A DNA stretch of 64,000 bases from Promethearchaeota archaeon. Its GTDB lineage: Archaea > Asgardarchaeota > Lokiarchaeia > Sigyniarchaeales > SOKP01. Below the pieces are notes generated by a model. It had not been told where the DNA came from. It ran no database searches and worked only from the letters and a program-made list of their open reading frames with translations. Both the position numbers and the translations under genes were made by a program. The stretch spans positions 32,001-96,000 of the forward strand of contig JAHLWS010000077.1 in the NCBI GenBank assembly GCA_019057795.1, written 5' to 3'. Positions 2,496-33,216 of this stretch are shown here, one piece after another. Within the stretch, counting starts at the first letter, position 1, and every line of letters begins with the position of its first letter.

Positions 2496-2506
2496 TCCTC
2501 TTAAAT

Positions 2507-3489: not shown

Positions 3490-3550
3490 TATTTCTCACC
3501 TCTTCTCCTTGTCGATTTTTTTTTCACCCATTAACAAAAAAATAAGATCA

Positions 3551-3583
3551 TTTATAAATATTATTGATTTAGATCAATAATAT
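3551..3583. promoter_or_regulatory. TATA-like element plus 11-bp inverted repeat (candidate operator)
   Basis: TTTATAAA at 3551-3558 abuts ATATTATTGAT-ttag-ATCAATAATAT (3558-3583), between the divergent small ORF and the CARF gene. Confidence 0.55.
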
Positions 3584-3650
3584 AGAGAAAAAACAATATT
3601 TAAATTTGAAAAACTCCAATAATAAATAAAGATGAATAAAGTGATTTCTA

Positions 3651-6247: not shown

Positions 6248-6331
6248 CATACATGCGTAATCACTTCTATTTCTATATCGGAAGATATGAAAAATTGTAT
6301 TCTTTAAATGATAGCAATTATTTAGGGGAGG

Positions 6332-14344: not shown

Positions 14345-14450
14345 ATCTCTCTTCTTCTCCTAAACATTATTTAATAACTATAACACAAATTAAATAAATA
14401 ATTATTAAAAACTATTTATTTGCCAAAATAATTAAAAAAAAATTGAAAAT

Positions 14451-14475
14451 TGTTCCCATATGGGAACATTTATAT
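14451..14475 (+). promoter_or_regulatory. perfect 18-bp palindrome abutting a TATA box at the head of the UFM-like operon
   Basis: TGTTCCCATATGGGAACA (14451-14468) followed directly by TTTATAT, about 60 nt before ATG 14530. Confidence 0.65.
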
Positions 14476-14529
14476 GTTAAAATTTCTATTACATTATCGT
14501 ACAAAAAATATAAATTTAGGTTTCAATAC

Positions 14530-16814: not shown

Positions 16815-18590
16815 ATGAAATACAATAAAATCATTATCCAATTTAACTCCCAATCAAAATCAGGAAAAATTTCTGAAGCAATTAAACTTGCTAAAAGCCT
16901 TAAAGCCAAATTTGATGGAAAATATTATGAAGTACTTTTTAATTCTATCAATGATAAAAATCTTCTATTATTAAGCAATTTAATAGGATTTCTGAGCGGT
17001 TCTCGGATTTTTATTGACGATGAAGATTGTGGGCGACCCTATAGATTGGGTGAAAGACTAGATTTTAAAAATAATTGTCCAGATTATGAAGATTTTTGTA
17101 ATGGAAATTGTTCAATTACCATGTTTAGGACTGAGAATGATCTTAAAATTGCGAGGAGGATTTGTAAAAAGTTTAAAGAACCTAAAATACAAAACACAAT
17201 AACAAATGAAAAAAAAGAGAGAAAGAAAATTATTTTTCAATTTAACTCCAAATCTAGAGGAGGGGATGTTCCTGAGGCTATAAAAATTGCAAAATCTCTT
17301 AGATCAGAATTCGATGGGAAAAATTATAAGGTCTATTTCGATTCTGTAAGCAATGAAAATCTGTTATTATTAGATAATCTAGTCGGGAGCCTAAGTGGAA
17401 CTCGATTTTTTGTGAATGGCGAAGAGTTAGAACCTTACATATTGTCTTCCATTTTTAATTGTCCACAAAAATCAAAATGTGATGGAAAATGTGTATATAT
17501 TTACCACGAACCTTCATCTGCTACAGCAAAGAAGTATTGCAAAAAATTTAATGAAACTCTTAGTATAAAAAAACCAATAATCACATACAACGGGCGTGAG
17601 ATCTTATGGATCAACAATGAAGATGATCCTGCATTCCCTAAAAACCCAGATAATAAATATATATTGATTGATAGTCCCAGAGGTTTTGGGCCTAATTCAA
17701 TTATAGGTGTTGAGATGGAAAAAGCAGACTTAATTTTTGATGATATGAAATATAGTATGATGGACGAGGAGGAATCTATACCTGAGGAAAAAGGATTTGT
17801 ATTAAATATACCCTTCGTAGGCATAATAGATATATCAAAGATTGAAGGATTGGAAAAACTTACTGAATTGAAAAGATTGGACCTTTATGGAAATGAGATT
17901 TTTGAAATTAAAGGACTTGAAAGACTTATTAATTTGGAGTACTTGGATTTGAGCGGAAGTGAGATTACGGAGATTAAAGGGCTAGAAAATCTCATTAATC
18001 TAAAGGGCTTAATTTTGAAAGCAAACAACATTAATGAAATTAGGGGATTAGAAAATCTTGTTAATTTAATTTATTTAGATATATCTGAGAATCCAATTTC
18101 TGAAATTAAGGGATTAGAAAACTTGGTAAATTTAAAGCATCTTGTTCTTACTGATATTAAAATTGAAGAAGAATCATTAAATCAAATTGCTGAAGAAAAT
18201 GTTCCAGAAGAATTAAAACAAGTTATTAAAGAAAATACTTTATTTATGTATAATTATTATAGTTTTCCTAATTACGCTCAGAAGTTTGTAGAATATTGTC
18301 AAAGAAAGAAAACTAAGTCTTATCGAGAGGATAAAGAGAAAATCAAAAAGATTGAGGAAATTATGATTGAATCAGATTCCCTTAGTCTTGATACCTTAAG
18401 AGACACTCTAAAAATGGATGCTCATACTTTTAGTAATAAAATTTTAGATTGGGCTATAGAATATGGGTTTGAAATTGATGGAGATTATTTAATTACTAAT
18501 AAAAATACTCTCTCTGACTTTATTGATGAATTAGATAAATATTTTACTTTATGGAAAAAAGAAAGTAGTATACCAAAAAAAAAAGTTTAA
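16815..18590 (+). CDS. LRR protein (EIKGLE type) with duplicated Cys-rich N-terminal domain and C-terminal WH plus ID.L...F..W helix
   Basis: 22-aa SDS22-like LRRs; two ~115-aa N-terminal repeats; tail FIDELDKYFTLWK. Confidence 0.85.
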   Translation: MKYNKIIIQFNSQSKSGKISEAIKLAKSLKAKFDGKYYEVLFNSINDKNLLLLSNLIGFLSGSRIFIDDEDCGRPYRLGERLDFKNNCPDYEDFCNGNCSITMFRTENDLKIARRICKKFKEPKIQNTITNEKKERKKIIFQFNSKSRGGDVPEAIKIAKSLRSEFDGKNYKVYFDSVSNENLLLLDNLVGSLSGTRFFVNGEELEPYILSSIFNCPQKSKCDGKCVYIYHEPSSATAKKYCKKFNETLSIKKPIITYNGREILWINNEDDPAFPKNPDNKYILIDSPRGFGPNSIIGVEMEKADLIFDDMKYSMMDEEESIPEEKGFVLNIPFVGIIDISKIEGLEKLTELKRLDLYGNEIFEIKGLERLINLEYLDLSGSEITEIKGLENLINLKGLILKANNINEIRGLENLVNLIYLDISENPISEIKGLENLVNLKHLVLTDIKIEEESLNQIAEENVPEELKQVIKENTLFMYNYYSFPNYAQKFVEYCQRKKTKSYREDKEKIKKIEEIMIESDSLSLDTLRDTLKMDAHTFSNKILDWAIEYGFEIDGDYLITNKNTLSDFIDELDKYFTLWKKESSIPKKKV

Positions 18591-18597
18591 TTCTAAG

Positions 18598-19734
18598 ATG
18601 TCATTTAACGATCAAGCTTTATCAGCGATAAAAAATAATTGGTGGTTAAGACGATTTTCTAGACGCTTTTGGATTCTTAATACCACAAATTTTATTTTTA
18701 TCTTACACGATAATATCGCAAATTGGATGGGTAAGGCAGTCCCGTTATATTTGCCAAAGGAAATGATACTATTATATTATAATAGAAGAACAAAGAAATT
18801 TCGACTATATGTAAAAAATAAAATTACAATTAAAATGCTTAACGCTTTATGTAATGCTCTTAAATGTACGAGCCCTTCCTTTAAGACTCATGGAATATAT
18901 TTAGATTCATTTGACGATCCTGATCTCACTAAATTTAAAAAAACTCCAGAAGGAGAAATATATTTTCAAGAATTACAATGCGGAGAAAATTGCGTTATTT
19001 ATAACGGAGAGTATTATTTGATTAAAATGGTAAATTTTTATTCTCATAATTTTGGAATGTTAGATTTGAGTAAAAAAGGAATTCGAGATACTTCTGAAAT
19101 AAAGGGATTAGATACTCTTCAAATTTTAGGTGAATTAGATTTAAGCAATAATAAAATTACTGAAATAAAGTGTCTTGAGAATCTTAATAATTTATATAAA
19201 TTAGATCTTAACAATAATAGAATTACTGAAATAAAAGGAATAGAATCTCTTAAACGATTGCGATATTTATATCTAAAAACTAATCTGATCAAGGAGATCA
19301 AGGGGCTTGAGAACTTTGCAATTGATCGAACTGGAGGAGATATGGAGTTAAATTTGGGAGATAATCCAATACCCTTAACTCTATTAAATAAATTAGGAGG
19401 ACTAAATAAAGATGGTTTCGCTAACAATCTTGAAGAACTTGTGGATTACTGCATTAAGAAAAACATAGAAATCGAAAAATTAGATAGAAGTTCTATTGTG
19501 AAATTAAAAAAGATCTTAAGAATTTCTAATCGTTTCAGGCTAGATATGCTGATGGATATACTTGATATAGATAAAAAAACTCTTATTAAAATCGTTGAAA
19601 AATGGTCTGCTGATTTCGGTCTTGAAATAAATGGAAATTATTTAATAATTAAAAAAGATACGGTTTTGGAATTCATTGACGCTTTAGATAAGCAATTTAA
19701 TGAATGGGAAAAAACAGATATGAAAAATAATTAA
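18598..19734 (+). CDS. LRR protein (EIKGLE type) with C-terminal WH plus helix
   Basis: LDLSNNKITEIKCLE repeats; tail FIDALDKQFNEWE, homologous to the upstream gene's tail. Confidence 0.85.
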   Translation: MSFNDQALSAIKNNWWLRRFSRRFWILNTTNFIFILHDNIANWMGKAVPLYLPKEMILLYYNRRTKKFRLYVKNKITIKMLNALCNALKCTSPSFKTHGIYLDSFDDPDLTKFKKTPEGEIYFQELQCGENCVIYNGEYYLIKMVNFYSHNFGMLDLSKKGIRDTSEIKGLDTLQILGELDLSNNKITEIKCLENLNNLYKLDLNNNRITEIKGIESLKRLRYLYLKTNLIKEIKGLENFAIDRTGGDMELNLGDNPIPLTLLNKLGGLNKDGFANNLEELVDYCIKKNIEIEKLDRSSIVKLKKILRISNRFRLDMLMDILDIDKKTLIKIVEKWSADFGLEINGNYLIIKKDTVLEFIDALDKQFNEWEKTDMKNN

Positions 19735-19772
19735 AATCTCATAATTTAATTTTTTTAAGAACAGAACTCAAT

Positions 19773-19895
19773 ATGCGAACCTATAAATTGATTCAACAGT
19801 TTCGAGAAAATTGCATTATTCAAGGTAGAAAAGAGGATTTATTAAAATTTAAAGTAGGAGATACTATTTTTTTATTTTTGTTTAAGCAAAAATAA
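19773..19895 (+). pseudogene. truncated copy of the 5' end of the CDC48-N-like gene at 21447
   Basis: MRTYKLIQQFRENCIIQGRKEDLLKFKVGDTIFL versus MNTYKLIPQLRNGLIIQAKKEWLSDFKIGDTIFL (22/34 identical), then a stop. Confidence 0.8.
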
Positions 19896-20034
19896 TCGAT
19901 AATAATGGGTGAGGTGATATTTTTTTAATATAAAAAAAGGAAAATTCGATAATGCAGAATGGCTAAGAGAAGAATTTATAAATAAGGAGAAATCAGTTTA
20001 TCAGATAGCAAAAGAATGTAAAGTACCTACTCAG

Positions 20035-21411
20035 GTGATATACAAAAGATTAAATGATTTTGGGATAAAATTAGAAAATCCTTGGACGGAAATTAGAAGA
20101 ATGGGAGCCCAAAGTGCTAGAAAAGAAAGAGAAAAATTGAAAAAAAAATATAGCACAAAGAAATTATTCGAAATGGCGCTATCTTATACATTAAAGAATA
20201 AATTAGATGATGCGATTAAATTTTTTGAATTAATGACTGAAAAAGATCCTAATCATTTTCTTGCTTGGGTAAATATGGGTGTGCTTTTTACATACTACGA
20301 TTTATCATATACTACGGCTTATTCTGCAAGACATTATGATAAAGGTGTTGAAAGCTTTACAAAGGCACTTGAACAAAGACCAAATGATATCACCAGTTTG
20401 ATTGGTTTAGGAGATGCTTATAGTGGAAAGAAAGAATTTTCTAAATCAATTGAATCTTTTCAAGAAATTTCAAATAAAACGCCTAATAATTCTGAAGATT
20501 TGAGTGGGATTGGATTTACATTTTTAAATGCAAACAGTATCGATTATCAAATGAGGGATGTAGCTAACGATGGATACGTCCCTATTAATAAGGATTATCA
20601 ATTATTGAGCCATTTAAACTCTCATCTTAAAAAAGAAAAGAAAGAAAAGTACAATAGCGCATTGAGAAGTATGTCGAAAGTTTTAAAATTCCAAAAAATG
20701 CAAAATATACCAAATAAATATCTAATTAGTCGAGAAGTTTACAGCAACAAATTAGAATCTATAATAAAAATAATAAGAGCCATCGAATATGAAAAGGAGA
20801 AAGCAGAATGGAAAGAAACTAAAGAGTATAGAGATCTGGAAGATAAAAAGATAATAGAATTCGTTAAACCCTATAAAGAAATTGCCATTCATGATATTGT
20901 AGAACATTTTCTTTCAAAAAGTAAAATTGATAATACAGAAAAATTTTATCAGCCGGCTAAAGAGAGGATAGAACAAAAATTAAGATATTTAATCGATAGA
21001 AATATGATTCAAGGTTCTATTCAATATCTACCCAATAAAACGGGTTTATATTTTATAAACGAAGAAAAAATTAAGGATATTAAAAAAGACATTGTCTATC
21101 AAACGTTATTAGAATTTTTAGAAAACTATTCGAGATTATCCTTACTTGAGTTAGTTGAAAAAGTTAATCATCAAGTTGAAAAACAATTCGGCAACTCTGG
21201 TAAAATGTTGCCTACAAAAGTGAAGGAATTAGCTATGAATTTTATAAATAAAGGGTTAATTCCAGCAAACTATGACGAAGCTTCAGAAGGTATAGATTCT
21301 ACCATTATGGAACAAAAAATTGACGAATTATCCACTACAATTGAAGGGTGGGGTAAAGGAGACAACGAAAAGGTTGATTCTTCTTTAAAAAAAAAAAATA
21401 AAAAAATATGA
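20035..21411 (+). CDS. HTH-TPR protein with two C-terminal WH (PCI-like) domains and an ID.L.....W helix
   Basis: TPR motifs; WH segments EFVKPYKEIAIHDI...LIDRNMIQG and YSRLSLLEL...FINKGLIPANYD; tail KIDELSTTIEGW. The frame is open upstream to 19918 and encodes an HTH (WLREEFINKEKSVYQIAKECKV). Confidence 0.75.
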   Translation: MIYKRLNDFGIKLENPWTEIRRMGAQSARKEREKLKKKYSTKKLFEMALSYTLKNKLDDAIKFFELMTEKDPNHFLAWVNMGVLFTYYDLSYTTAYSARHYDKGVESFTKALEQRPNDITSLIGLGDAYSGKKEFSKSIESFQEISNKTPNNSEDLSGIGFTFLNANSIDYQMRDVANDGYVPINKDYQLLSHLNSHLKKEKKEKYNSALRSMSKVLKFQKMQNIPNKYLISREVYSNKLESIIKIIRAIEYEKEKAEWKETKEYRDLEDKKIIEFVKPYKEIAIHDIVEHFLSKSKIDNTEKFYQPAKERIEQKLRYLIDRNMIQGSIQYLPNKTGLYFINEEKIKDIKKDIVYQTLLEFLENYSRLSLLELVEKVNHQVEKQFGNSGKMLPTKVKELAMNFINKGLIPANYDEASEGIDSTIMEQKIDELSTTIEGWGKGDNEKVDSSLKKKNKKI

Positions 21412-21446
21412 AGAGATCAAAAAATTAAAGTCGGAAATTAAGAAGA

Positions 21447-22529
21447 ATGAATACTTACAAATTAATTCCACAGCTTAGAAATGGCTTAATTATTCAGGCG
21501 AAAAAAGAGTGGCTATCAGATTTTAAGATTGGGGATACAATTTTTTTGATTTCTGATTTACCCACTAAAAAATACTCAATAATATCTAAAATTGAAGCAA
21601 TTGAATACGCTGAAGAATCAAAAATTTTTATAGATAATAGGAATTTGGGCAATTTTGGAGAGGGAGAGGAGGTTTATATCATTAAATACAACCCTGCCGA
21701 AGCTTTAGAGGTTCACATAAATGTTTCAAACGAACACGCCATAATTACTAAAGGTGATTGGACATCTAATATAAAACCTTCGTTAATTAACAGACTTATA
21801 GATTACGGACAAGAAGTTGCTTTCTTAATTCCATGGGAAGGTGGTGCGCCTATAGTTGCTACGGGAATTATAAATTCAACGCTTCCAAATCCACCTGTAT
21901 ATATTGGGGATAAAACCAAGATTTTCATAGATAAAAGTTCAAATGAAGAACTCTCAGAAATCAAGAGAGAAAAATTGTTGATCCAAGAGGATCGCGTTGA
22001 TATTTTAGAAAGACAAATAAAACAGAAAACTATTAAGCTAATCAGAGAGATAAAACAGAATAATTATCCAAATAAAGGTCAAAAATACAAGTTTAAAGCA
22101 ATAAATCCAAGACAATTATTTAAATCCATTCTCAGCGTTTTTAGAGGGTTAGATTCTATTGAAGATCCTATAGAAGAATCGTTTGATGAGAAGGAACAAG
22201 ATTATCTTGCTTCAGCTGTATTTTTGACTAAGCAAAAGTCAGATTCATTCCAATTAATAGATATACAAATAATGGCATCTGGGCATTCGGGAACTTTAAC
22301 GTTATGGGTTACAGGAGAAAACGAATCAATAATTTCTGAAACTTTAAAAAATTACGATTCAAGAATTTCGCAATTACAACAAGGATTAGAACAAAAGATT
22401 GAAGTTTTAAGCACTCAATGTCCAGAATGTGGAGGGCATCTCCCTATTAAAAATATAGATATAAATGGTGTAGTTGAATGTATATATTGTAATAAAATTT
22501 CAAAAATACCAAAAGCTTTAAGATATTAA
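21447..22529 (+). CDS. stand-alone CDC48/p97-N-like domain protein with C-terminal zinc ribbon
   Basis: GEGEEVYI...AEALEV...LINRLIDYGQEV...STLPNPPVYIGDKTKIFI follows the CDC48 N-domain pattern; no AAA domain; CPECGG...CIYC. Confidence 0.6.
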   Translation: MNTYKLIPQLRNGLIIQAKKEWLSDFKIGDTIFLISDLPTKKYSIISKIEAIEYAEESKIFIDNRNLGNFGEGEEVYIIKYNPAEALEVHINVSNEHAIITKGDWTSNIKPSLINRLIDYGQEVAFLIPWEGGAPIVATGIINSTLPNPPVYIGDKTKIFIDKSSNEELSEIKREKLLIQEDRVDILERQIKQKTIKLIREIKQNNYPNKGQKYKFKAINPRQLFKSILSVFRGLDSIEDPIEESFDEKEQDYLASAVFLTKQKSDSFQLIDIQIMASGHSGTLTLWVTGENESIISETLKNYDSRISQLQQGLEQKIEVLSTQCPECGGHLPIKNIDINGVVECIYCNKISKIPKALRY

Positions 22530-22535
22530 ATAATC

Positions 22536-23363
22536 ATGACTAAAAATAGATATACAAGATTGAACGCTATAAAAGAATTTGGTTACGATATTACTTGGGA
22601 CGATCTTAAACGCTATCACATAGGAATAGTTGGAGTTGGGGGACTTGGTTGCGTTTCTGCGGAAATGGCAGCTAGATGTGGCATTGGAAAATTATCATTG
22701 TTTGATTTTGATACGGTAGATATTGTTAATTTAAATCGTAGTATGTTTAAGGAAAAGCATATAGGACAATCAAAAGTAAAAATCGCTTCTAAAATATTAA
22801 AAAAAATCAATCCTGATGTTGAAGTTTACAATTTTGAAAACGATATTATGAACCCAAATTTTGAATCCGATTTTGAAAAAGAAATTTCACACATGGATAT
22901 AGTTTTAAATGGGCTCGATAACATTCCTGCTAGAGAATATTTGAATGCTAAATGTGTTCGTTTAAGAGTGCCCTACATTGATGCTGGAGCCTCAAGGAGT
23001 GGATTATCTGGATATGTGCATCCCGTTATTCCTTATAAAACAGCATGTGCAAAATGTATGAGTATTATTGCAATTGACATTCCAGATGAAAGGGGTGATC
23101 CATGTGTTGCATCCTTACCTTCTACAATGGCAATACTAGCAAGTATACAAATTCAAGAAATGTTAAAATACCTTCTAAAGTTTGGAGAAATGATTGACTA
23201 TCTCATGTATGACATGATAACGGGGAAATTTTTAAATTATGAAACTAAAAGAGACAAGAATTGTCCTATTTGCGGTATAAAATCTCAAAATAATAAAAAA
23301 TTAATGAAACCTAAAATTTCACGAGGAGAAATAGACGATTTAATTGATAAACTCAAAGAATAA
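22536..23363 (+). CDS. uba5: UBA5-like E1 activating enzyme (ThiF family)
   Basis: YTRLNAIKEFG, GVGGLG..AEM..RCGIGKL.LFD, CAKC, catalytic C in CVASLPSTM..LKYLLKFG, compared with recalled human UBA5 YSRLMALKRMG and CAASLPTTM..LKFLLNFG. Confidence 0.85.
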   Translation: MTKNRYTRLNAIKEFGYDITWDDLKRYHIGIVGVGGLGCVSAEMAARCGIGKLSLFDFDTVDIVNLNRSMFKEKHIGQSKVKIASKILKKINPDVEVYNFENDIMNPNFESDFEKEISHMDIVLNGLDNIPAREYLNAKCVRLRVPYIDAGASRSGLSGYVHPVIPYKTACAKCMSIIAIDIPDERGDPCVASLPSTMAILASIQIQEMLKYLLKFGEMIDYLMYDMITGKFLNYETKRDKNCPICGIKSQNNKKLMKPKISRGEIDDLIDKLKE

Positions 23364-23537
23364 AAGGTGAAAGTCAAAAAAAACATTACAATTAATAAAT
23401 AATAAATAAACAGAGATAGAATATTATATTCGAATGAGAACATCTTATTCCAATGAAAAGTAAATGTCTAGAATATCTTAAAATTCACACCCTCTCTGGA
23501 AAAAATTGCGACAATAACAAAAAGGAATAAAATAAAA

Positions 23538-25004
23538 ATGGAAAAAATAAAGTCTGATCAAGAGAAAGTTTTAGAGGAAATATTAGGGAAAAAATGGAAA
23601 AATATTCCTCAAGTGGATAAAATTGAATGGAACACATTCGGAGTTAGAATTAAGGATGGTGACATTATTGGTTTAGGATTATCTAGGAATCAATTAACAA
23701 CTCTCCCAGAGTCAATAGGCAACCTAACATCGCTCCAAACACTAAAGTTGTGGAAAAATCAGTTGACAACCCTCCCGGAGTCAATAGTAAACCTTTCCTT
23801 CCTTAAAGAATTAGATTTACATTATAATAGTTTAACGACTCTCCCGGAGTCAATAGGAGATCTTACATCTCTCAAAACACTAGGTTTATCACACAATAGG
23901 TTAATAACCCTCCCGGAGTCAATAGGTGATCTAAAATCGCTCCAAAACCTAGATTTGTTTGATAATAAGTTAACGACCCTTCTGGAGTCTATAAGTGACC
24001 TAAAATCGCTCCAAACACTAGATCTGAGTGATAATAAGTTAACCACTCTCCCGGAGTCAATAGTAAACCTTTCCTCCCTTAAAGAATTAGATTTACAGGA
24101 TAATAGTTTAACGACTCTCCCGGAGTCAATAGGAGATCTTACATCACTCCAAACACTAGGTTTATCGCACAATAGGTTAATAACTCTCCCAGAGTCGATA
24201 GGCAATCTAGCATCGCTCCAAACACTATATTTAGGCGAAAATAAGTTTACGACTCTCCCAGAGTCAATAGTAAACCTTTCCTCCCTTAAATGGTTTGATT
24301 TAGGGGGTAATAGTTTAGCAACTCTCCCAGAGTCGATAGGCAATCTAGCATCGCTCCAAGCACTATTATTACATGAAAATAAGTTAATGACTCTCCCGGA
24401 GTCAATAGTAAACCTTTCCTCCCTTAAACGGTTTTATTTAGAGGGTAATCCGTTAAATCAGGAATTCAAAGGAATAATTAAAATGGCTGGAGATACTCAA
24501 TTTATACTAAGAAAACTAAGAGAAATTTTTGAAAAAGAAAGGTTAGAAAAAGAAAAGTTAAAAAAAGAAAGGTTAGAAAAAAGGTATAAAAGAGAGAGAC
24601 CAATTATTAAAAAGTTAATACAAGAAATGAAATTTTCAGACGCTGTTTTGAAGTTAAAAGATTTTAAAAATACTGCCAAAAGATATAATTTAAGCGAAAT
24701 TATTAATTGGACAGAGAAAAATTTAACACTTTGTAATATACAAATAATTAAAAAAACTGTTTTAGAGTTAGGAATTAAATTTGCCCGATTGCAAATTGCA
24801 GAAATTTCGGAAGTATCCGATCTAGATAACTTCCAATTAATTGTAGACACTGTAAACAATATGATTGATAATAAAGAAATATACGCCCAATATTTTTCTA
24901 GCACTAAATCTGTTGCGTTTGACCAGCAAGCAAATATTGATGAGATCGATAAACTAATGAGCGCATATAAAGATTGGGAAGATAAAGAGGTCGGAAAGAA
25001 ATAA
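23538..25004 (+). CDS. LRR protein (LPESI type, ~11-12 x 23 aa) with C-terminal PCI-like WH plus helix
   Basis: Highly regular LRRs; tail LGIKFARLQIAEI...EIYAQYF...FDQQANIDEIDKLMSAYKDWE. Confidence 0.9.
   Translation: MEKIKSDQEKVLEEILGKKWKNIPQVDKIEWNTFGVRIKDGDIIGLGLSRNQLTTLPESIGNLTSLQTLKLWKNQLTTLPESIVNLSFLKELDLHYNSLTTLPESIGDLTSLKTLGLSHNRLITLPESIGDLKSLQNLDLFDNKLTTLLESISDLKSLQTLDLSDNKLTTLPESIVNLSSLKELDLQDNSLTTLPESIGDLTSLQTLGLSHNRLITLPESIGNLASLQTLYLGENKFTTLPESIVNLSSLKWFDLGGNSLATLPESIGNLASLQALLLHENKLMTLPESIVNLSSLKRFYLEGNPLNQEFKGIIKMAGDTQFILRKLREIFEKERLEKEKLKKERLEKRYKRERPIIKKLIQEMKFSDAVLKLKDFKNTAKRYNLSEIINWTEKNLTLCNIQIIKKTVLELGIKFARLQIAEISEVSDLDNFQLIVDTVNNMIDNKEIYAQYFSSTKSVAFDQQANIDEIDKLMSAYKDWEDKEVGKK
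23690..24450 (+). repeat. 69-bp tandem repeats encoding LRRs
   Basis: Recurrent ctccc(g/a)gagtc(a/g)atag every 69 nt; the block at 23775 is nearly identical to the block at 24051 (276 nt apart). Confidence 0.9.
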
Positions 25005-25062
25005 AAATTTTATAATCCAGTAAAATATTAAAAGAAATTCAGAAAATAAAGGGTGACAACCT

Positions 25063-26247
25063 ATAGAAACTTTTCATATCTCTGAAACACTCGTTAAGAT
25101 AATTAAAAATCAAGCGTTATTAAGCGAAAATGAGATATATGGGTGGTTAATCGGGTATCTAGAAGATAAAACTCCAAAAGTTTTAGCTATTATTGAATGT
25201 AAACGATTTGAGCAACAAACACTTATAAGTGCAATTCCACACGCCCAAGAATTTCAGGAAATAAGTTCTGTGATGCCGCAAGGAATAGGTCCTATTGGGA
25301 TATATCATTCACACCCGTTTTCTAGCGAAATTTTTCACAGTCATACTGACGATTCTACTTTGTTAAGTCTAAGTAATCAGTTTTCTAATTGCGTTTCGAT
25401 CGTAACAAATGGAAAAGATATTAATTATTACCAAATGGGAAAGGAGAGTAAAACTATAGAAATTAACGTTAAATATATCGAACCAGAGATTCCAAAGTTT
25501 TTATTAATTTTGTTTGATGAAACTCTTTTAATCAAGATAAATAAAAGTATTTTAAATAATGTAGAGAATGTCAGCAACTTAAAAATAAGAATTTTGAACG
25601 AAGTAAATAATTTTTTAGAGAATATCTGGAGCGATTTAGAGTTATTTGCGAACTATTCGAAGATATCTGAGAACGATGTTGTTACTAAATATTTAGTAAA
25701 TAATTTAAAAGCGCGTCCAATTCAACTAAAGATTTCAGCAGAAACGAAGAATAAAGGTAAAATCCAAATAGTAATAGACAACGATAATGAATCAAATATT
25801 ATAACTGATTCTATTGATAACGATTACAAGTATTATAGATTAGATTTAAATGCCAAAGTTCCAATTTATGTCAGCAACGATAATAAGATTTTCAAAGATA
25901 TAAATAACGCAATTAAGACAGAATTATTGAGCAATAATATTCTCCAAAAGATTTATAATTGTGTTATCGATTACGATAAAAAAATTATTATAACTCCCGA
26001 TGATTTTTATCTTAATTTCTTCGGATTTTATATAAGAGTTTTGTACTTCAATAAAAACGAATTAAACGAATTCGAATTTTCCCATAGAACTTTTGATTTG
26101 ATATATAAATTTATATCTCTATTTAATTCTCTTCTAAATAAAGAATTATCAAATAAATTCAAAAGCCAAATTAAAACGTTTTTTAATGATATAAAAAAAA
26201 TCTCTAAAAAATTTAGCTGGCATTATGAAATTAATAAAAACTATTAG
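25063..26247 (+). CDS. JAB/MPN+ metallo-isopeptidase with long C-terminal extension
   Basis: NEIYGWLIG (catalytic Glu) lies in frame upstream of the track start at 25270; YHSHP...HSHTD JAMM motif. No canonical start codon; ATA 25063 follows a GGGTGA RBS. Confidence 0.8.
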   Translation: METFHISETLVKIIKNQALLSENEIYGWLIGYLEDKTPKVLAIIECKRFEQQTLISAIPHAQEFQEISSVMPQGIGPIGIYHSHPFSSEIFHSHTDDSTLLSLSNQFSNCVSIVTNGKDINYYQMGKESKTIEINVKYIEPEIPKFLLILFDETLLIKINKSILNNVENVSNLKIRILNEVNNFLENIWSDLELFANYSKISENDVVTKYLVNNLKARPIQLKISAETKNKGKIQIVIDNDNESNIITDSIDNDYKYYRLDLNAKVPIYVSNDNKIFKDINNAIKTELLSNNILQKIYNCVIDYDKKIIITPDDFYLNFFGFYIRVLYFNKNELNEFEFSHRTFDLIYKFISLFNSLLNKELSNKFKSQIKTFFNDIKKISKKFSWHYEINKNY

Positions 26248-26286
26248 AAAATAATTAAAAATAGAAAGTATTTGAGATAAACAAAA

Positions 26287-27333
26287 ATGTCAAGATGGAC
26301 CGATTTTAAAATCTCTTTTGGAAAACCTGGTATCTTATCCAAGGATATGAAATTTCTAAAATTTCATGATGACTTTTTTACTATTGAATCATTAAAGTGG
26401 AACAATATAAATGATCTTAAATCAGATGAGATTTTAACTATAATAGAATTTTACGAAGAATTCCTCTTAAAATTCGATGAAATCTACCCAGAGTTTAAAT
26501 CGAAGAAATCTATCCAGAGTCTATATAAATTAGAAAATAAATATAAATTTCTTCGTTATTTATTTCCATTTCACTATATATTGGAAGATAGATTAAATTT
26601 CTTTAAAAACTTAAAAATTGGAATTGATTTTTGGAATCAAAAAAAATTTGATGGTGTTTTAAAACATTTTAAAATTATATATGATTCAATTTTAGAAATA
26701 GAAAAGGAAAAAACCTATGGGCAACGGTATAGGAAGTATAAAACAATGTACAGTTCTCCCACTCGTCCAGTCAATGACTATGTAGGAGGATTTAGTCGTG
26801 ATGATCTAAAGAATGGGAATTTTAATGAATTAATAAATGTAGTAAAAAATAGAACAGAGGATTTGAATCAGTTTTTCCAGTATAGAGAAATCATTGAATT
26901 ATTTAATGAAAATTACAAAATAAAGTCGTATAATAGAGCTTTTGACAATTATCTCAAAGCGGAGTATTATAGAAACAAGATCCAGCGTTCAAATTTAGCA
27001 TATTTTGGAATATTGGAAAAAGAAGAGAAATTTAAAGAAAAATTTGCGGTTGTATTACTAAATCTAACAAATAAAATTAGAAGAGTTGTATTGGATTTAG
27101 GTACTAAATTTACTAGATTAGAAATAAGAGAAATTAAAGAAAAATGTTATGTGGAATCCAAAGACCTCATAGTTAATGTCATTAAAAATATGATTAAAAA
27201 TCATGAAATCTATGCTGAATACTTTTCAAGTTCGAGTGCCATAGCATTTAATCAACAAGCAAATATTGAGGAAATAGATAATTTAATGAAAAAATATGAG
27301 CAGTGGGAAAAAGGAGAAAAAAGAAAAATTTAG
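26287..27333 (+). CDS. unknown N-terminal domain plus C-terminal PCI-like WH and helix
   Basis: Tail LGTKFTRLEIREI...EIYAEYF...FNQQANIEEIDNLMKKYEQWE. Confidence 0.8.
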   Translation: MSRWTDFKISFGKPGILSKDMKFLKFHDDFFTIESLKWNNINDLKSDEILTIIEFYEEFLLKFDEIYPEFKSKKSIQSLYKLENKYKFLRYLFPFHYILEDRLNFFKNLKIGIDFWNQKKFDGVLKHFKIIYDSILEIEKEKTYGQRYRKYKTMYSSPTRPVNDYVGGFSRDDLKNGNFNELINVVKNRTEDLNQFFQYREIIELFNENYKIKSYNRAFDNYLKAEYYRNKIQRSNLAYFGILEKEEKFKEKFAVVLLNLTNKIRRVVLDLGTKFTRLEIREIKEKCYVESKDLIVNVIKNMIKNHEIYAEYFSSSSAIAFNQQANIEEIDNLMKKYEQWEKGEKRKI

Positions 27334-27451
27334 ATAAATCGAATATAAACATAGAGTTTTTAATAATTAAAATATCCCCGAATTAACAAAAAATTAAAAA
27401 AAATAATTTATGATATTAATTTAAGGTAAAAAGTTTAAGGTTAAGAATAAA

Positions 27452-27718
27452 ATGGCATCAGAATTAAATACGATATATTTTGTTAACAAATTTGGCTCAG
27501 AAAAAAAGCAAATCCCTTTTCCAATTGCTCCGAATATAAAATTAATGGATGTTATACCAGAGATTTCAAAAAAATTTGGAATATCATCTCAAAATATATG
27601 TATTGCTAATATGGGAGGGCAGGTTTTAACTTCTACAGATTTACTAAGCCCTGTTAGAGAATTAGTAGAAAAATTTGGCAACACATTCGATATTATAGAT
27701 CGAGGTATTGTTGGTTGA
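27452..27718 (+). CDS. ufm1: UFM1-like ubiquitin-fold modifier ending in Val-Gly
   Basis: 88 aa; C-terminus VEKFGNTFDIIDRGIVG* versus recalled human UFM1 FLKHGSELRIIPRDRVG; single terminal Gly. Confidence 0.8.
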   Translation: MASELNTIYFVNKFGSEKKQIPFPIAPNIKLMDVIPEISKKFGISSQNICIANMGGQVLTSTDLLSPVRELVEKFGNTFDIIDRGIVG

Positions 27719-28257
27719 GTACTACAAATTCTCGCTGGCAAAGGTCTATTTTAGACGAAATTATCCAAGAATTTCCTGAAAAATGGGTATCTGTGGGACC
27801 AAAACACCCTGCTTGGAAAGATCGTGTTAAATTAGAGATCGAAAAAATTATGCAATACATAAATTTTCTTAGAAATACAAAAAATAGACCTTGGTTTAAA
27901 TTATATCCCGAAAAAAATCCTCGTTATAACTATCTAATCTGGACTGGAAACTTACTCGTTCCAGACTATCCCGAAATTAATTTTGTTATTAAAGTACTCT
28001 TAACTTCTGAATATCCAAAAGTATGTCCACGATGTTTTGCTGAAGAAAAAATTGTGGAATATTGTGGAAAAATCTTTTTGAAAAATATCTGGGAACAAGA
28101 AGGTAAGAAATATGTAATGATATGCCATGAACACATGTCAAATACTCACGCTTGGAGAGAGAATCTCGGAATTGCTCACTTTTTTATACGACAAGTTTGG
28201 GTTTGGTGGGCTGCCCAACAAAATGTAATTATTAAAGAATATGATAAGAAAAAGTAA
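27715..28257 (+). CDS. ufc1: UFC1-like E2 conjugating enzyme
   Basis: GPKHPAWKDRVKLE..IMQYI..WFKL, YP..P, ICHEH, LGIAHF versus recalled UFC1 GPRDRELWVQRLKEE..IRYV..WFRL, ICLTDH, FGLAHL. TTG start overlaps the UFM1 stop (TTGA). Confidence 0.85.
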   Translation: MSTTNSRWQRSILDEIIQEFPEKWVSVGPKHPAWKDRVKLEIEKIMQYINFLRNTKNRPWFKLYPEKNPRYNYLIWTGNLLVPDYPEINFVIKVLLTSEYPKVCPRCFAEEKIVEYCGKIFLKNIWEQEGKKYVMICHEHMSNTHAWRENLGIAHFFIRQVWVWWAAQQNVIIKEYDKKK

Positions 28258-28327
28258 AAATGTTAAGTATTTAATAGAGCGATTAAAATATTAAAAGAAT
28301 TAAATAATGAAATTTAATTGATCTAAT

Positions 28328-29762
28328 ATGAAAATCCCAAAAGAAGCACAAAAATTGTTTAATCTAGCCAATGAACATAGTGATAATAAAGAATTTGAAA
28401 TAGCTTTAAAATATTTAAATCAAGCTTTAGAAATTGACCCTAATTACGCCGAGGCTATGAGTAAATTAGGTTATATACATTATCGGCTTGATTATAAAGA
28501 AATTTCAAAGGAAGAAGTGTTTAATCTCTCTAAAAAAGCCTTAGATTTGAATCCGAAATCTCCAATTGTGTGGCGATCTATGGGAATTGCTTATAAAAAT
28601 AAAAAAGAATACGATAAAGCAATCGAGTGCTATGATAAAGCGATCGAGTTGGATCCGAACTATGTCAATGGCTGGTATAGTATGGGAAGTGCTTATGATG
28701 ATAAAAAAAAATACGATAAAGCTATTGAGTGCTACAAAAAGGCAATCGAGTTAGATCCGAATGATGTATATGCCTGGAATAATATGGGAAATGCTTATAG
28801 TGATAAAAAAGAATACGATAAAGCAATCGAGTGCTATGAAAAAGCGGTTGAGATTGACCCGAATTATGTCTCTGCGTGGTATAATATGGGACTCGCTTAT
28901 AAACATAAAAAAGAATACGATAAAGCTATTGAGTGTTATGAAAAAGCGGTTGAGATTGACCCGAATTATGTCTCAACATGGATTAGTATGGGAATTGCTT
29001 ATTATAAAAAAAAATTTGTACGATAAAGCAATTCAGTGTTATGAAAAAGCGGTTGAGATTGACCCGAATTATGTCTCAACATGGATTAGTATGGGGATTG
29101 CTTATGAAAGTAAAAAAGAATACGATAAAGCAATCGAATGCTATGAAAAAGCACTCGAGTTAGATCCGAATCATGTATCTGCTTGGTATAGGATGGGAAT
29201 TGCTTATAGTGATAAAAAAGAGTACAATAAAGCAATCGAATGCTACGAAAAATCACTCGAGTTAGATCCGAATTATATCTTTGCCTGGATTGATATGAAA
29301 GATGCTAAAGAAGAACATAGGCGGAATAAATTGTATCAACTTTTTAGGGAACTTCAATCAATTTTGCGTGAAAAATATCCAGATTTTGATTTAACCAATT
29401 ATAAGAATTTTCTTAAAAGTGGAGTTATAGAAGTTCCTGAAGATTTTATTTCTGTAATTGAGAAATTAGATGTCTTATCTATAATACCTTTATCAATACA
29501 AAGTACAATAAGAGAAACAATATTAGAATTAGGTGTAAAATACAATCGCTTACAAATTGCCGAGATCGCTGAGAAATGCGGTGAGCCAGAAGATTGTATT
29601 ATTGTTGTTACCCATGATATGATTGAAAATAAAGATATCTATGCTGAATTTTTTAAATCGACTAAATCGCTTGTATTTGATCAACAGGCAAATATCGAAG
29701 AAATAGATAAATTAATGGATCAATATCGACAATGGGAAAAGGAAGGGATAAGCAAAAAATAA
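28328..29762 (+). pseudogene. TPR protein with C-terminal PCI-like WH plus helix, split by +1 base in the A9 tract (29006-29014)
   Basis: Track ORFs 28328-29026 and 28761-29762 join if A9 becomes A8 (AYYKKNLYDKA, in TPR register). Two ~60-nt identical repeat copies sit 103 nt apart instead of 102. Tail EIDKLMDQYRQWE. Confidence 0.8.
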
Positions 29763-29812
29763 TTATTGATTAATTAGATGTTTTAGAAAAAATTCTTTAA
29801 TTATTAATAAAT

Positions 29813-31450
29813 ATGGCGGATAGAGATAAAAATCTACAAAAATTTAGTAAAATTCTAAATGTATATAATGAAATTAATTTAGACAAAATGGCTAAATTAA
29901 TCGGATTTAGAAACTCTATAGATCTAGAACAATGGATTCTAGATTTGCCAGAAAAGTATCACACATATTTAACAATTAGAGGAAAAAATGTTATTATTCA
30001 ATCTAATATCTCGGAAACGATCGATGACCTATTAAATGAATTTGAAAAATGGGATAGTCGAAAAAGTGGAAAAATAATAGAAAGTATCGATTTAAGAAGA
30101 CCCTTTTTTAGAACAACATCGAAAACCGAATCATCCATTTTAGGAGATTCAAGATTAGGCTCTGCAGGTAAAAAGTTTCTTAGTTTATTGTCTACCCATA
30201 AAAGCATTACAAGAAACCGATTTATTAAGGTCTTTGAACTTGAAGCGCTCGTAGATATCGATGATTGGCTATTAGGCCTTCCGAAAGAATTAGGTATTTT
30301 TCTTAATGTAAAGGGCGATGTTATAAAATTCGAGCAAAAAGCTTCAGATAAAGCAAAATTGAAATTAGCCGAACATTTTGATGATTGGATTACAGATTCA
30401 ATGAATGAGTTGACAAAGATTGATGAATCCGCTGTTAGTAAAGAAATAAGAAGAATACCAAGTATTTTAGGAGATGGTTATCACGATTTTTTTAAAATGG
30501 ATATTAAAAAAGAAAAAAGAAAATTTCTTATTCTCCACTTAACAGGTGAAAACCAATTTACGACAAAATCTGATTATGGTGATAGAACTTATACGGCATT
30601 TACAGTTAATATGGATGTTAAAAAGAGTGTCTTAGATTTCCAGCCTGATATAATAGAAAAGGCAAAAAAATCAGTTATACAAAGTGAAATTTATCAGAGA
30701 AATGGAAAAAGGTATTATTATGTAAGCCCCGCTGGTCGTCATATTAGCCGACTAATTAGAACATCGGAAAAGGATTTTCAAATTAGGTTAAAAAACCTTT
30801 TGATTGAAGTGGTACCAGCAGAAAACTTCTCATTTTCAATTCTTTCTCCATCAAGAAAACAAAATATCTTACTTGTATCTTCACCTAGAAAAATGTGTGT
30901 TAAGTGTGGTGATATTTTTACACCTGTAATGTGGGATGGGTGGGAAATTAAGTATCTATCAACAAAAAATGTTTATATCTGTGAGGAATGTAATCCAAAA
31001 CTAAAAAAAACTGTTCAAGAAGAAAATGTTAATAGAGCTATGTGTGAGTTAAAAATTAAAAAAGTAATTTCAAAAAAAGCAAAGATAAGAATCTTTTCTA
31101 TATTAAATCTAATACTTCTTCTGGCTGTTGGATTGCCTTTATTATCATATATTTTCCCTATTATTATATTTACTATATTAGAGGTTTATTTATTAATAAA
31201 ATGGAAACTCATCTCTAACCAAATTAAAAATATGAGAACCGAGGAGTCTATTCGAAAAAAAGTGGTTTTAAATAGTGTTAAGCAGTATGATGGAAATTTA
31301 TTAAAAAAAAAATTTATACCTAAATTTTGTAAACAATGTCGTTGGTTTGATAAAAGCGACCAGAAATGTCATGTTGATGAAGAATCAGGAGAGATCTACG
31401 ACCATTTTAATTTAAATGGTGAAAAAGAGTGCTTCGAGCCAAGAAAATAA
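29813..31450 (+). CDS. membrane protein with two N-terminal WH-helix units, Zn finger, TM hairpin and C-terminal Cys cluster
   Basis: N-terminal ...TIDDLLNEFEKWD; CVKC..CEEC; hydrophobic IFSILNLILLLAVGLPLLSYIFPIIIFTILEVYLLI; CKQC..C..C. Confidence 0.7.
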   Translation: MADRDKNLQKFSKILNVYNEINLDKMAKLIGFRNSIDLEQWILDLPEKYHTYLTIRGKNVIIQSNISETIDDLLNEFEKWDSRKSGKIIESIDLRRPFFRTTSKTESSILGDSRLGSAGKKFLSLLSTHKSITRNRFIKVFELEALVDIDDWLLGLPKELGIFLNVKGDVIKFEQKASDKAKLKLAEHFDDWITDSMNELTKIDESAVSKEIRRIPSILGDGYHDFFKMDIKKEKRKFLILHLTGENQFTTKSDYGDRTYTAFTVNMDVKKSVLDFQPDIIEKAKKSVIQSEIYQRNGKRYYYVSPAGRHISRLIRTSEKDFQIRLKNLLIEVVPAENFSFSILSPSRKQNILLVSSPRKMCVKCGDIFTPVMWDGWEIKYLSTKNVYICEECNPKLKKTVQEENVNRAMCELKIKKVISKKAKIRIFSILNLILLLAVGLPLLSYIFPIIIFTILEVYLLIKWKLISNQIKNMRTEESIRKKVVLNSVKQYDGNLLKKKFIPKFCKQCRWFDKSDQKCHVDEESGEIYDHFNLNGEKECFEPRK

Positions 31451-31505
31451 TTAATTGAAGAAAAGTTTGAAAGTTTCTGATAGAATAAGGATAACAAAAA
31501 GTTAA

Positions 31506-31637
31506 TATGTTATCCCGGAAATTGTTTTTAAAATCAAGGGCTTAGAAACTTTAAGCTTAAGTGCTAATCGGCTAAAAAATATTCCAGAGGAAATTTCTAC
31601 TCCATATTTTCTCTTTTTAAATCAATCAATTGCATAG
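31506..31637 (+). pseudogene. orphan LRR fragment
   Basis: Translates as IPEIVFKIKGLETLSLSANRLKNIPEEIS; no start codon and an in-frame stop upstream. Confidence 0.6.
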
Positions 31638-31678
31638 ACGAGAAAGAAATTGTATCCATATCTCAAAGAAATTTAGTA

Positions 31679-32764
31679 TTATTTTTTTCCATTTCCACTC
31701 ATTTCCCATTTTTTATATTGGTCCATCAGGTTATCAATCTCAGCAAGATTTGACTGCAGATTAAACGCAACAGATTTTGTACTATCGAAGTATTTAGCAT
31801 AAATCTCATCATTTGAAATCATTTCCTTTACTGTTAGTATTATTAAATCTTCCCTTTCGTTTACTTCTTCCACGATTTCTATTATTTGTAGCCTTGCAAA
31901 CTGTGTTCCCAGAGTTAAAATTGTATTCTTAATCTTAGCAATTTTTGTTTGTTGAATCAGATCTTTTATCATTTTAGTCTGATCATTTTTCTTGGCATAA
32001 TTGTTAATCTCTTTTACTTTTGATAAAGCGTCATTAAGAAGAGTTATCGATTGATTATGTTCTCTTTTTTGTTGATCTGCTTGTGTTATAATACTATTAA
32101 TTTCTGTAATATGGATCTGATCAAGCTCTTGTTCACATTTGCTTAATTTAAATTTAATTTCTTTTCTAAATTTCATATCTTGTCTAGAACACTCAATACT
32201 AACTGCCTTTTTAAACAGTTCACGTGCTTCTTCATAGTTTTGTTTGTTAAATTTAGCTAATCCTTGTTCGTACAAACTCTTTACGTTAGCGATTTGAAGG
32301 CTTTTTTGGAAAAAATTAAGGATTTTCGTATCATAGTATTCTCCGTCTCCGTTATCTTTTAGTGGAGTTTCATTTAATGCTTTTTTAGTTATTTTAATGC
32401 CAAGATCTGGATCTTCCCAGAATTCTTCTACTAAATCCTTTACAATTTCAGTGGTTAAATTTTCAAAATTGAAATACTTAGAGGAGTTTTCCATGTATTG
32501 TATATATGGAATATCTAACAACCAATTATCCATACTCTCTCGTACAAACTGAATGAAATGAAAGTCATAATTAGTAAAACCTATAAACGTTTCCACTCGT
32601 AATTTATCAATTTCTTTTAATGCTTCACTTAAAGTTATGAATTCCTTAAAGTTGGAAGTATCGATATGCATCGAAGTATCGATATACATTTTGAATTTTT
32701 TATGCCATTTTTCAGTATGTAATTGGCCACGCAGTGTTTCATTTGGTCTCTGCGACTTTTCCAT
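31679..32764 (-). CDS. unknown N-terminal domain, TPR-like helices and PCI-like WH plus helix
   Basis: Tail LGTQFARLQIIEI...EIYAKYF...FNLQSNLAEIDNLMDQYKKWE. Confidence 0.8.
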   Translation of the reverse strand: MEKSQRPNETLRGQLHTEKWHKKFKMYIDTSMHIDTSNFKEFITLSEALKEIDKLRVETFIGFTNYDFHFIQFVRESMDNWLLDIPYIQYMENSSKYFNFENLTTEIVKDLVEEFWEDPDLGIKITKKALNETPLKDNGDGEYYDTKILNFFQKSLQIANVKSLYEQGLAKFNKQNYEEARELFKKAVSIECSRQDMKFRKEIKFKLSKCEQELDQIHITEINSIITQADQQKREHNQSITLLNDALSKVKEINNYAKKNDQTKMIKDLIQQTKIAKIKNTILTLGTQFARLQIIEIVEEVNEREDLIILTVKEMISNDEIYAKYFDSTKSVAFNLQSNLAEIDNLMDQYKKWEMSGNGKK

Positions 32765-32979
32765 ATTTGAATAATAATTCCTTAGTAGGTTGTCTTTCTC
32801 TTCTTTTGAAATTTTAAATACTCTTTTTTTTAATTTCTTTACTATGTCTAGTTTTATTTATTAATATTATATAATAAAAATTTAATGTTGCACTATGATT
32901 CTATGAATGACTTAAATTTTCAATTCAGTCTCACCTTCTAAGATTTATGAGTTTTTCTTTATTAATAATTTTTCTTTCA

Positions 32980-33216
32980 TTACTTCTTTCCAAATTCCTT
33001 ATCTTCCCATTCTTTATAGGTTGTCATTAATTTGTCAATCTCGTTAATATTCGCTTGTTGATCAAAAGCTACTGATTTGCTGCTCTCGAAATATTCTGCA
33101 TAAATTTCCTTATCATCTATCATACTATTAACCACCTCTACTATTAAATCTTGATTATTTATTTTAGATTTTTCTCCAATTTCCTCTATTGATAGTATCT
33201 TACATCTCCCAATGCA
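32980..33216 (-). pseudogene. orphan WH-plus-helix tail remnant
   Basis: Translates as ...SIEEIGEKSKINNQDLIVEVVNSMIDDKEIYAEYFESSKSVAFDQQANINEIDKLMTTYKEWEDKEFGKK*; in-frame TGA at 33219-33217 upstream. Confidence 0.8.

Follow-up and report, generated by a model that had tools for sequence, protein, structure and literature searches.

A PCI-type module shared by proteins of varied architecture at a UFM1-like operon of an Asgard archaeon

The locus and its core genes

The genes described here lie in a UFM1-like locus of a Promethearchaeota archaeon of the Asgard lineage Lokiarchaeia (assembly GCA_019057795.1; genome of 4.95 Mb, 31% G+C). The window, by which we mean the whole 64,000-nucleotide stretch that was analyzed, is taken from contig JAHLWS010000077.1 (C77 below). 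Judging from sequence matches, the locus is a UFM1-like operon, with genes for a UBA5-like E1, a UFC1-like E2, a modifier ending in Val-Gly and a JAB/MPN peptidase. Between 16815 and 33216, the window also holds eight genes and one remnant whose products combine various domains with a common winged-helix (WH) module and an amphipathic tail. We call these products adaptors, after the role proposed for them below, and refer to each by the start coordinate of its gene or open reading frame (ORF).

A first-pass annotation, made from the letters of the sequence alone, had listed nine loci with this shared module and quoted their tails, all of which are indeed present. The list itself needs some amendment (Table 1): the gene at 28328 is split by a frameshift, the product of 29813 carries its module N-terminally and in duplicate, and the remnant lies at 32983–33216. 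The notion of one shared module behind varied domains was borne out by the domain searches.

Table 1. Core genes, adaptor genes and related features of the window (LRR, leucine-rich repeat; TPR, tetratricopeptide repeat; HTH, helix-turn-helix; TM, transmembrane)
Feature	Position	Strand	Remarks
Multi-WH protein, 488 aa, core gene	14443..15909	+	weak HTH/WH Pfam matches
SPFH/Band 7 protein, core gene	15943..16800	+	Pfam Band_7 3.3e-11
Adaptor: LRR, subfamily-B WH module, tail (FIDELDKYFTLWK)	16815..18590	+	
Adaptor: LRR, subfamily-B WH module, tail	18598..19734	+	
Diverged 40-codon copy of the 5' end of gene 21447 (its first 34 codons), just 5' of adaptor 20035	19773..19895	+	
Adaptor: TPR, PCI-like WH, variant tail ending WG	20035..21411	+	Pfam PCI E 0.001, below cut-off
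Core protein of 360 aa, C-terminal zinc ribbon	21447..22529	+	kept 5' of E1 in 20 loci
UBA5-like E1, C-terminal helix tail	22536..23363	+	Pfam ThiF 2e-53
Adaptor: 11-unit LRR, subfamily-A PCI module, tail	23538..25004	+	module folded, matches PCI subunits
JAB/MPN metallopeptidase, 250-aa C-terminal domain	25063..26247	+	MPN domain match to Rpn11-type
Adaptor: N-terminal part without assigned domain, subfamily-A PCI module, tail	26287..27333	+	
Ufm1-like modifier, 88 aa, ends RGIVG	27452..27718	+	
UFC1-like E2, invariant Cys137	27715..28257	+	Pfam UFC1 7e-5, 23 bits (cut-off 25 bits)
Adaptor: about 10 TPR units, subfamily-A PCI module, tail; frameshifted	28328..29762	+	
Subfamily-B module in duplicate at the N-terminus, each copy with a tail-like helix; TM segments and Cys-rich end follow	29813..31450	+	
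Adaptor: unassigned part, TPR, subfamily-A PCI module, tail	31679..32764	-	
Remnant: 78-codon open frame, only WH and tail of subfamily A	32983..33216	-	

When the E1 was compared with the PDB, the top matches were UBA5 chains (8.5e-48), with MoeB at 1.5e-28, and its C-terminus reads EIDDLIDKLKE, as had been annotated. A profile of the E2 found UFC1 as its best PDB match (5.5e-6), other E2s appearing at 0.1 or weaker. Both results agree with the initial assignment of the locus to a UFM1-type system. The modifier ends in RG[IV]VG in 27 orthologs and gave no sequence match to solved UFM1. In six related loci (L026, L028, L030, L034, L035 and L037), modifier and E2 form one frame of 273–278 residues, from which the modifier would have to be freed by JAB.

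The order 360-aa protein, E1, JAB, modifier and E2 is conserved in 32 loci of other Asgard genomes, where the multi-WH and SPFH genes usually accompany this core; the SPFH/Band 7 gene adjoins the operon in other genomes too, and the multi-WH protein has orthologs in at least 12 related loci. A second, compact copy of the operon (multi-WH, SPFH, 360-aa protein, E1, JAB, modifier, E2) is found on contig C49 of the same genome. It includes a paralog of the multi-WH protein, and it is followed by two membrane-anchored proteins, both ending in the WH-tail module. Farther relatives of the window genes occur in Lokiarchaeum ossiferum, Heimdallarchaeum, Sigynarchaeum and Hermodarchaeota.

No match to the 360-aa protein was returned by a Pfam search. 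Its identification as a CDC48-N protein was considered and rejected, given the absence of a Pfam match, of any likeness to the CDC48_N-bearing protein of a related locus (L027) and of an Atlas match. In Lokiarchaeum ossiferum (L040, 5838–7229, minus strand), a single chain combines this protein with the last winged helix (C-terminal) of the multi-WH protein, suggesting that they act in concert; the E1 of that locus has no C-terminal tail.

The peptidase of the locus is of the JAMM/MPN class, not the UfSP-type cysteine peptidase by which a UFM1 system might be recognized. Its MPN domain is nearest to Rpn11-type enzymes (Z 16–19.6, with 19.6 for the Rpn11 homolog of Caldiarchaeum). The C-terminal domain (residues 146–394) is modeled as a mixed alpha/beta globule with three helices at its end, and it contains no invariant Cys or His. 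In Foldseek, the whole JAB model aligned with C. elegans UfSP (5xda) over some 378 columns, at a TMq of 0.40–0.42; the cause is unexplained, and a layout of MPN plus second domain held in common with UfSP2 may underlie the alignment. No ATG, GTG or TTG precedes the conserved N-terminus of the JAB protein, including the catalytic Glu region EIYGWL (window 25057–25270). Its orthologs (L003, 5384–5489; L023–L028) likewise start near a conserved Ile codon, suggesting a non-canonical start or coupled translation.

Directly 3' of the locus is the gene of a giant protein, an ORF of more than 9,389 codons (35832–63998, plus strand) that runs past the end of the window. An Rfam scan of the window returned no RNA family.

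The common module and its tail

Four adaptors (23538, 26287, 28761 and 31679) and the remnant form subfamily A, whose modules are 46–67% identical. The looser subfamily B comprises 16815, 18598 and, twice, 29813, while the module of 20035 stands apart from both. When profiles were compared, A and B were linked only weakly (E 4e-4, probability 34%), over a stretch of which the tail is a part. Neither the multi-WH protein nor JAB showed meaningful homology to the module in such comparisons (probability ≤3%), and no core protein visibly carries the adaptor module.

For the last 110 residues of 23538, AlphaFold2 (34-sequence alignment) produced a model with a pLDDT of 86.6, in which a long helix leads into a winged helix and then a C-terminal helix of 22 residues. 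The top 50 PDB matches of this model in Foldseek were nearly all PCI proteins, namely CSN2, CSN3 and CSN4 of the COP9 signalosome (CSN), proteasome lid subunits, eIF3 and PCID2 (E 6e-4 to 1e-2, probability 1.00), and UFL1 and DDRGK1 were absent from them. VIA superpositions, over 76–108 residues, gave Z values of 10.5 for eIF3 (108 residues), 9.3 for CSN4 (100 residues) and 9.2. In the same comparison, the winged helices of UFL1 and DDRGK1 tied, to within about 1–2 Z, on the WH core (Z 8.4–8.8 over 66–86 residues) and cullin WHB domains were similar, meaning that, by fold alone, this core is common to several WH classes; an end-to-end structural match was obtained with PCI subunits only.

Sequence searches point in the same direction. 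The PCI region of CSN3 was the best match in a PDB profile search of the module. The Pfam PCI model (PF01399, gathering score 22 bits) reached 19.6 and 14.7 bits on window proteins, below the cut-off, and was matched by 8 of 58 long relatives of the module (best E 7e-21); L063 scored 25.3 bits. TPR-like repeats directly precede the winged helix in 20035, 28328/28761 and 31679; in 16815, 18598, 23538 and 26287, their place is taken by LRR or unassigned parts. When all six frames of the genome were searched, with E values of up to 1 allowed, the Pfam models of UFL1 (PF09743) and DDRGK1 (PF09756) did not match any adaptor gene. By the tests run on model and sequence, the module is of PCI type and not of UFL1/DDRGK1 type, although the tie on the WH core means that some relationship to the latter may exist. 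The WH/PCI-like domain of the first-pass annotation is kept in its PCI part, both by fold and by sequence, and the annotation's comparison with the UFM1 E3 finds no echo in Pfam.

The same search located an 802-codon ORF about 10 kb past the window end (L006–L009), with matches to Pfam UFL1 (8.9e-16) and DDRGK (2.6e-8) at C77:105863–106750; the only other match in the genome was one weak site on contig C70. From its sequence, this ORF is a known type of Asgard UFL1/DDRGK1 homologue, encoded on the same contig as the operon.

The PCI assignment brings to mind an assembly like the proteasome lid or the CSN, in which the modules would lie side by side and their helices would bundle with JAB, yielding a receptor-equipped complex for de-tagging or tag processing. 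To our knowledge, every PCI complex of solved structure (CSN, lid and eIF3) has its post-WH helices bundled with MPN subunits. Besides fold and sequence, the presence of an Rpn11-like MPN peptidase in the same operon, with up to eight PCI genes for one MPN gene here, is consistent with such a complex. However, the JAB extension is a globular alpha/beta domain rather than the long helices of Rpn8/Rpn11 or CSN5/6, despite its three terminal helices; moreover, in some genomes the module is present and no UFM-type JAB was found, and many operons have JAB but no adaptor nearby. On balance, we consider this arrangement unlikely to be what the adaptors are for.

The tail runs farther and is more specific than the first-pass annotation had it: after a core of I-D-x-L-M-x-x-[YF]-x-x-W-E there is a Lys, nearly invariant, some two residues before the chain ends. 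Across 172 relatives the consensus is N-x-Q-A-N-I-x-E-I-D-x-L-M-x-x-[YF]-x-x-W-E-x3-[VI]-[GS]-K-K, and the chain ends 8–9 residues past the Trp in 129 of them. A regular expression for the tail matched 13 times in the 2.5 million residues of the genome's six-frame ORFs, and 10 of these matches fell in the two UFM-like loci, a pattern far from chance. A profile built on the tail alone recovered the window genes with E values between 1e-17 and 1e-9. PDB searches with short peptides (the E1 tail and one adaptor tail) found no match, as expected at 30 residues.

The Lys found seven residues after the Trp (the first Lys of the consensus) in 161 of the 172 relatives, with the C-terminus only one or two residues on, raises the question of whether it is a site of attachment for the Ufm1-like modifier, the proteins then being substrates or auto-modified switches. 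A precedent exists in eukaryotic UFBP1/DDRGK1, which is UFMylated on Lys267 in a WH domain (PMC10438457), and the Lys is replaced in relatives where a TIR domain follows. Still, a conserved terminal Lys-Lys could equally be a recognition or charge feature, and the tails of subfamily B are less regular; a tag-acceptor role seems very improbable to us.

Spread and co-occurrence with UFM-type genes

The subfamily-A module was found in 564 cluster representatives of a library of 1.84 billion proteins, nearly always at the extreme C-terminus and preceded by TPR, LRR, beta-helix, WD40 or GTPase parts. Several relatives encoded beside UFM-like operons are TM receptors, with a signal or anchor, an extracellular domain (beta-helix, or beta-propeller with TSP3 repeats), a single membrane span and the module in the cytoplasm.

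Within the loci, the adaptor genes behave as accessory cassettes. Tail genes lie near about 11 of 32 E2 loci, and their positions between the core genes vary from genome to genome. In the window they sit between core genes on one strand, with spacers of 6–60 bases. The short, diverged repeat of the start of gene 21447 looks, from its sequence, like the scar of a cassette insertion next to 20035, an adaptor that has orthologs at the same position in two related loci (L023 and L064). The frameshift in 28328 is at a run of nine A's (29005–29013) and divides the gene into ORFs 28328–29026 and 28761–29762, only the second of which has the module; the gene may be a true pseudogene, unless the run is a slippery site or was misassembled. 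With an insertion scar, one frameshifted copy and one remnant, the adaptors are accessory genes.

Co-occurrence was assessed in 301 genomes of the phylum, the same set being searched with the E2 and with the tail-only profile. A tail was found in 18 of the 25 E2-positive genomes (none found in 7) vs 11 of the 276 E2-negative ones (none found in 265), although these 2 × 2 counts overstate the support, because related genomes are not independent. The tail thus tracks the UFM genes, as the first-pass annotation had supposed, and is not equally abundant in genomes that lack them. The association recurs within single families: in a Heimdall-type family (f7), tails occur in 6 of 7 genomes with E2 vs 0 of 21 without, and in the window's own family in 11 of 13 vs 10 of 56. 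The genomes with most tail copies, up to 14, are E2-positive. The WH without the tail is far commoner (154/301 genomes). One of the 11 tail-only genomes (G094) probably carries the operon, since E1 and JAB genes are found in it on a 2.5-kb contig.

Four relatives on long metagenomic contigs provided further context. Two are inside the same operon. On a third contig (L066), two PCI-tail genes (121–3804 and 5644–8513) stand 2–4 kb from another ubiquitin-like operon, which encodes a ThiF E1, a Prok-JAB, a Metal_CEHH-like protein and a DUF2604 beta-grasp protein but no UFC1-like E2, a setting that favors the PCI–MPN assembly considered above. The fourth, a WD40 relative (P0035), lies among ribosomal genes.

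Some relatives lead away from the UFM-like machinery. In genome G077, two adjacent genes (L058, 6972–8927 and 9089–14728), and in G141 a relative of theirs (L057, 9318–11276, minus strand), encode proteins with a signal or TM segment, a NosD beta-helix (one also with SBP_bac_5), a TM segment, the PCI-tail module and a TIR domain. Their modules keep the motif I-E-x-L-I-x-x-Y-x-E-W-E.

A different kind of fusion is found in G273 (L060, 7834–10524, minus strand; P0045), whose 897 residues comprise SIR2_2 (ThsA-like), TPR, a UFC1-like E2 and a Ufm1-like domain, an architecture that, as read from sequence, has the flavor of a defense system. It was the only natural fusion found in a search for E2–module proteins, and it lacks the PCI module. 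PADLOC reported only generic E1, JAB and SIR2 matches.

These observations suggest a reading in which the module serves generally for oligomerization of receptor-like, possibly immune, proteins of Asgard archaea, UFM loci being shared islands that house such genes with no direct coupling. TIR effectors act as oligomers, and assembly or oligomerization is a known role of PCI domains; the PCI-tail-TIR receptors would fit, as would the tandem modules (29813, and another protein in L027), the arrays of small module-only genes away from E2 in G234, the WD40 relative among ribosomal genes and the patchiness of the operon itself (25/301 genomes; 5 of 27 in the genus). On the other hand, tail and E2 co-occur strongly and do so in each of two separate families, the adaptors are closely spaced with the core genes on one strand, and this genome's copies outside UFM-like loci are tail-less or fragments. 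In view of these facts, mere oligomerization without coupling to the operon appears quite unlikely.

A possible mechanism and its relation to known systems

Human UBA5 contacts UFC1 through L394, L397, M398, M401 and M404 (PMC8481289), and the hydrophobic residues of the adaptor tail have the identical spacing (i, i+3, i+4, i+7, i+10). In eukaryotes, the E1 and the E3, the latter through a UFL1 helix, share and compete for one groove of UFC1 (PMC10438457). As the first-pass annotation proposed, the adaptor tail might analogously mimic the E1 tail, occupy the groove of the UFC1-like E2 as the N-terminal helix of UFL1 does, and so bring the charged E2 to the target. The groove is conserved, its equivalents (V/I38, I42, I/L/V45, I/V49, F61, L63) being hydrophobic in 28 of 28 archaeal E2s; E1 tails begin with [ILV]-D-x-L-[IM] in 19 of 23 related operons; tail and E2 co-occur; and the protein of G273 joins TPR to E2. 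A weak hint is also offered by E2 position 46 (UFC1 I40), which is Ser or Gly in three loci with a tail-less E1 and no adaptor nearby (L034, L040 and L048), Leu in L037, which has adaptors with tails, and Leu or Met in loci whose E1 or adaptors have tails, but Ala or Thr in Heimdall-type E2s despite tails, in a sample too small to weigh.

As the whole mechanism, however, such mimicry remains doubtful. The tail is retained in E2-lacking genomes and in the TIR fusions, nothing in E1 tails corresponds to the Asn, Glu, Trp, Glu and Lys that never vary in adaptor tails, and an amphipathic helix pattern is readily matched by chance. Furthermore, the module is PCI-type, and the C-terminal helix of PCI domains is known for bundling, not for docking on an E2.

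We favor, at a probability of roughly 0.55, a broader reading, in which the adaptors are exchangeable receptors that dock through the PCI module onto the UFM1-like machinery. Each would consist of a variable, ligand-binding part and one constant unit. The variable part would be an LRR of either of two types, a TPR or an unassigned domain here, and elsewhere a small GTPase or WD40 domain, or else an extracellular domain (beta-propeller or beta-helix) with a membrane span behind it. The constant unit, i.e., the PCI-type winged helix, the amphipathic helix and the short Lys-ended C-terminus, would function as a docking and assembly module, tying the receptors to the machinery of conjugation and deconjugation (E1, E2, modifier and JAB/MPN). 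A target held by the variable part would then be tagged or untagged. Comparative genomics supports a plug-in receptor repertoire tied to the UFM1-like system.

As for the point of contact, our leading, if tentative, candidate has the tail helix lying in the groove of the E2 where the E1 tail binds. The JAB/MPN protein is a less probable partner, and other module-bearing proteins are perhaps slightly less probable again; the PCI/MPN alternative, which the first-pass annotation also named, is at least as well founded as pure E2 docking. Co-folding of four chains (E2, JAB, the Ufm1-like protein and the PCI-tail module, with alignments) scored 0.01 against a mark of 0.32, and this counts neither way.

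Several facts weigh against the receptor reading. The Trp, Glu and Lys that are invariant in adaptor tails are missing from E1 tails, and the co-occurrence counts are inflated by relatedness. An E2 profile of 28 sequences matched nothing in five tail-bearing, E2-negative genomes that were examined; one of the five is G094, and the other four yielded only generic JAB matches, two of these four being rated 100% complete. In many UFM-like loci, moreover, the nearest 10 kb hold no adaptor gene. Finally, searches of G077 and G141 revealed neither a UFC1-like E2 nor a UFM-type JAB, so that the module, as found in their TIR fusions, has a function independent of the UFM-like machinery.

Among known systems, the PCI subunits of CSN, lid and eIF3 (CSN2/3/4, Rpn5/6/7, eIF3a/c/e) resemble the adaptors in having a long helix, a WH and a C-terminal helix over 100–110 residues, in the TPR-like repeats that precede the WH in several cases, in the MPN/JAMM peptidase encoded alongside and in the Pfam PCI matches of relatives. 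Unlike them, the adaptors are prokaryotic, often have N-terminal LRR, WD40 or extracellular domains instead of a PCI solenoid, bear a tail with strictly conserved Trp-Glu and terminal Lys, and go with a UFM1-type system rather than with ubiquitin or NEDD8.

The UFL1–UFBP1 (DDRGK1) E3 is likewise a WH scaffold with a similar WH core, and it works with UFC1, the UFC1-binding sequence (UBS) helix of UFL1 lying in the E1-tail groove (PMC10438457); both UFBP1 and the two tail proteins of the C49 locus are anchored in a membrane. Differences are that the adaptor helix is C-terminal and not N-terminal, that no composite WH is evident, that the Pfam UFL1 and DDRGK models do not match, and that there are many paralogous receptors here vs one ligase. 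With the UBS of UBA5 (PMC8481289) the adaptors share a short terminal amphipathic helix and its hydrophobic spacing, and the archaeal E1 tail is similar; the adaptor tails differ by following a PCI domain and by adding the invariant Trp-Glu and the Lys-ended extension.

The Bil, Bub and CBASS (Cap2/Cap3) defense operons also combine E1, E2, ubiquitin-like protein and JAB and are patchy, and the SIR2- and TIR-fused relatives add to the likeness. Yet the E1 of this locus resembles UBA5 and its E2 resembles UFC1, rather than Cap2 or Bil enzymes, the PADLOC matches are generic, and the analysis yielded no evidence for a defense role.

UFM1 and UFC1 have been described as eukaryote-only, with UFL1/DDRGK1 homologues reported from Asgard archaea (PMC10183829), and Asgard homologues of Ufm1 are the subject of a recent report (PMC12962969). 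Archaeal proteins linked to ESCRT have previously been observed to contain PCI-like winged helices (PMC10936438). Our literature search found no account of an Asgard UBA5/UFC1 operon with an adaptor family, nor of any PCI family from prokaryotes whose genes accompany those of an MPN peptidase and a ubiquitin-like system. To this picture, the locus adds a complete operon (E1, E2, modifier and peptidase) and, following it through the Asgard lineages, a family of putative receptors with the PCI module. Because all components are small and soluble and their genes are neighbors, recombinant proteins could be used to examine how target choice originated in UFM1-type systems and how the PCI/MPN architecture arose.

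The known role of UFM1 in eukaryotes is in ribosome quality control. The TIR and SIR2 fusions among relatives hint at a possible immune-like function, unlike this role. It is even conceivable, though something of a long shot, that the locus encodes a prokaryotic PCI–MPN machine joined to UFM1-type tagging, whose exchangeable receptors assemble with JAB and E2 and tag or untag the targets that they recognize; in light of the same fusions, this machine may perform a surveillance resembling innate immunity. If that were true, it would be a living model for the origin of the eukaryotic lid, CSN and eIF3, as well as an ancestral, multi-receptor form of the UFM1 E3.

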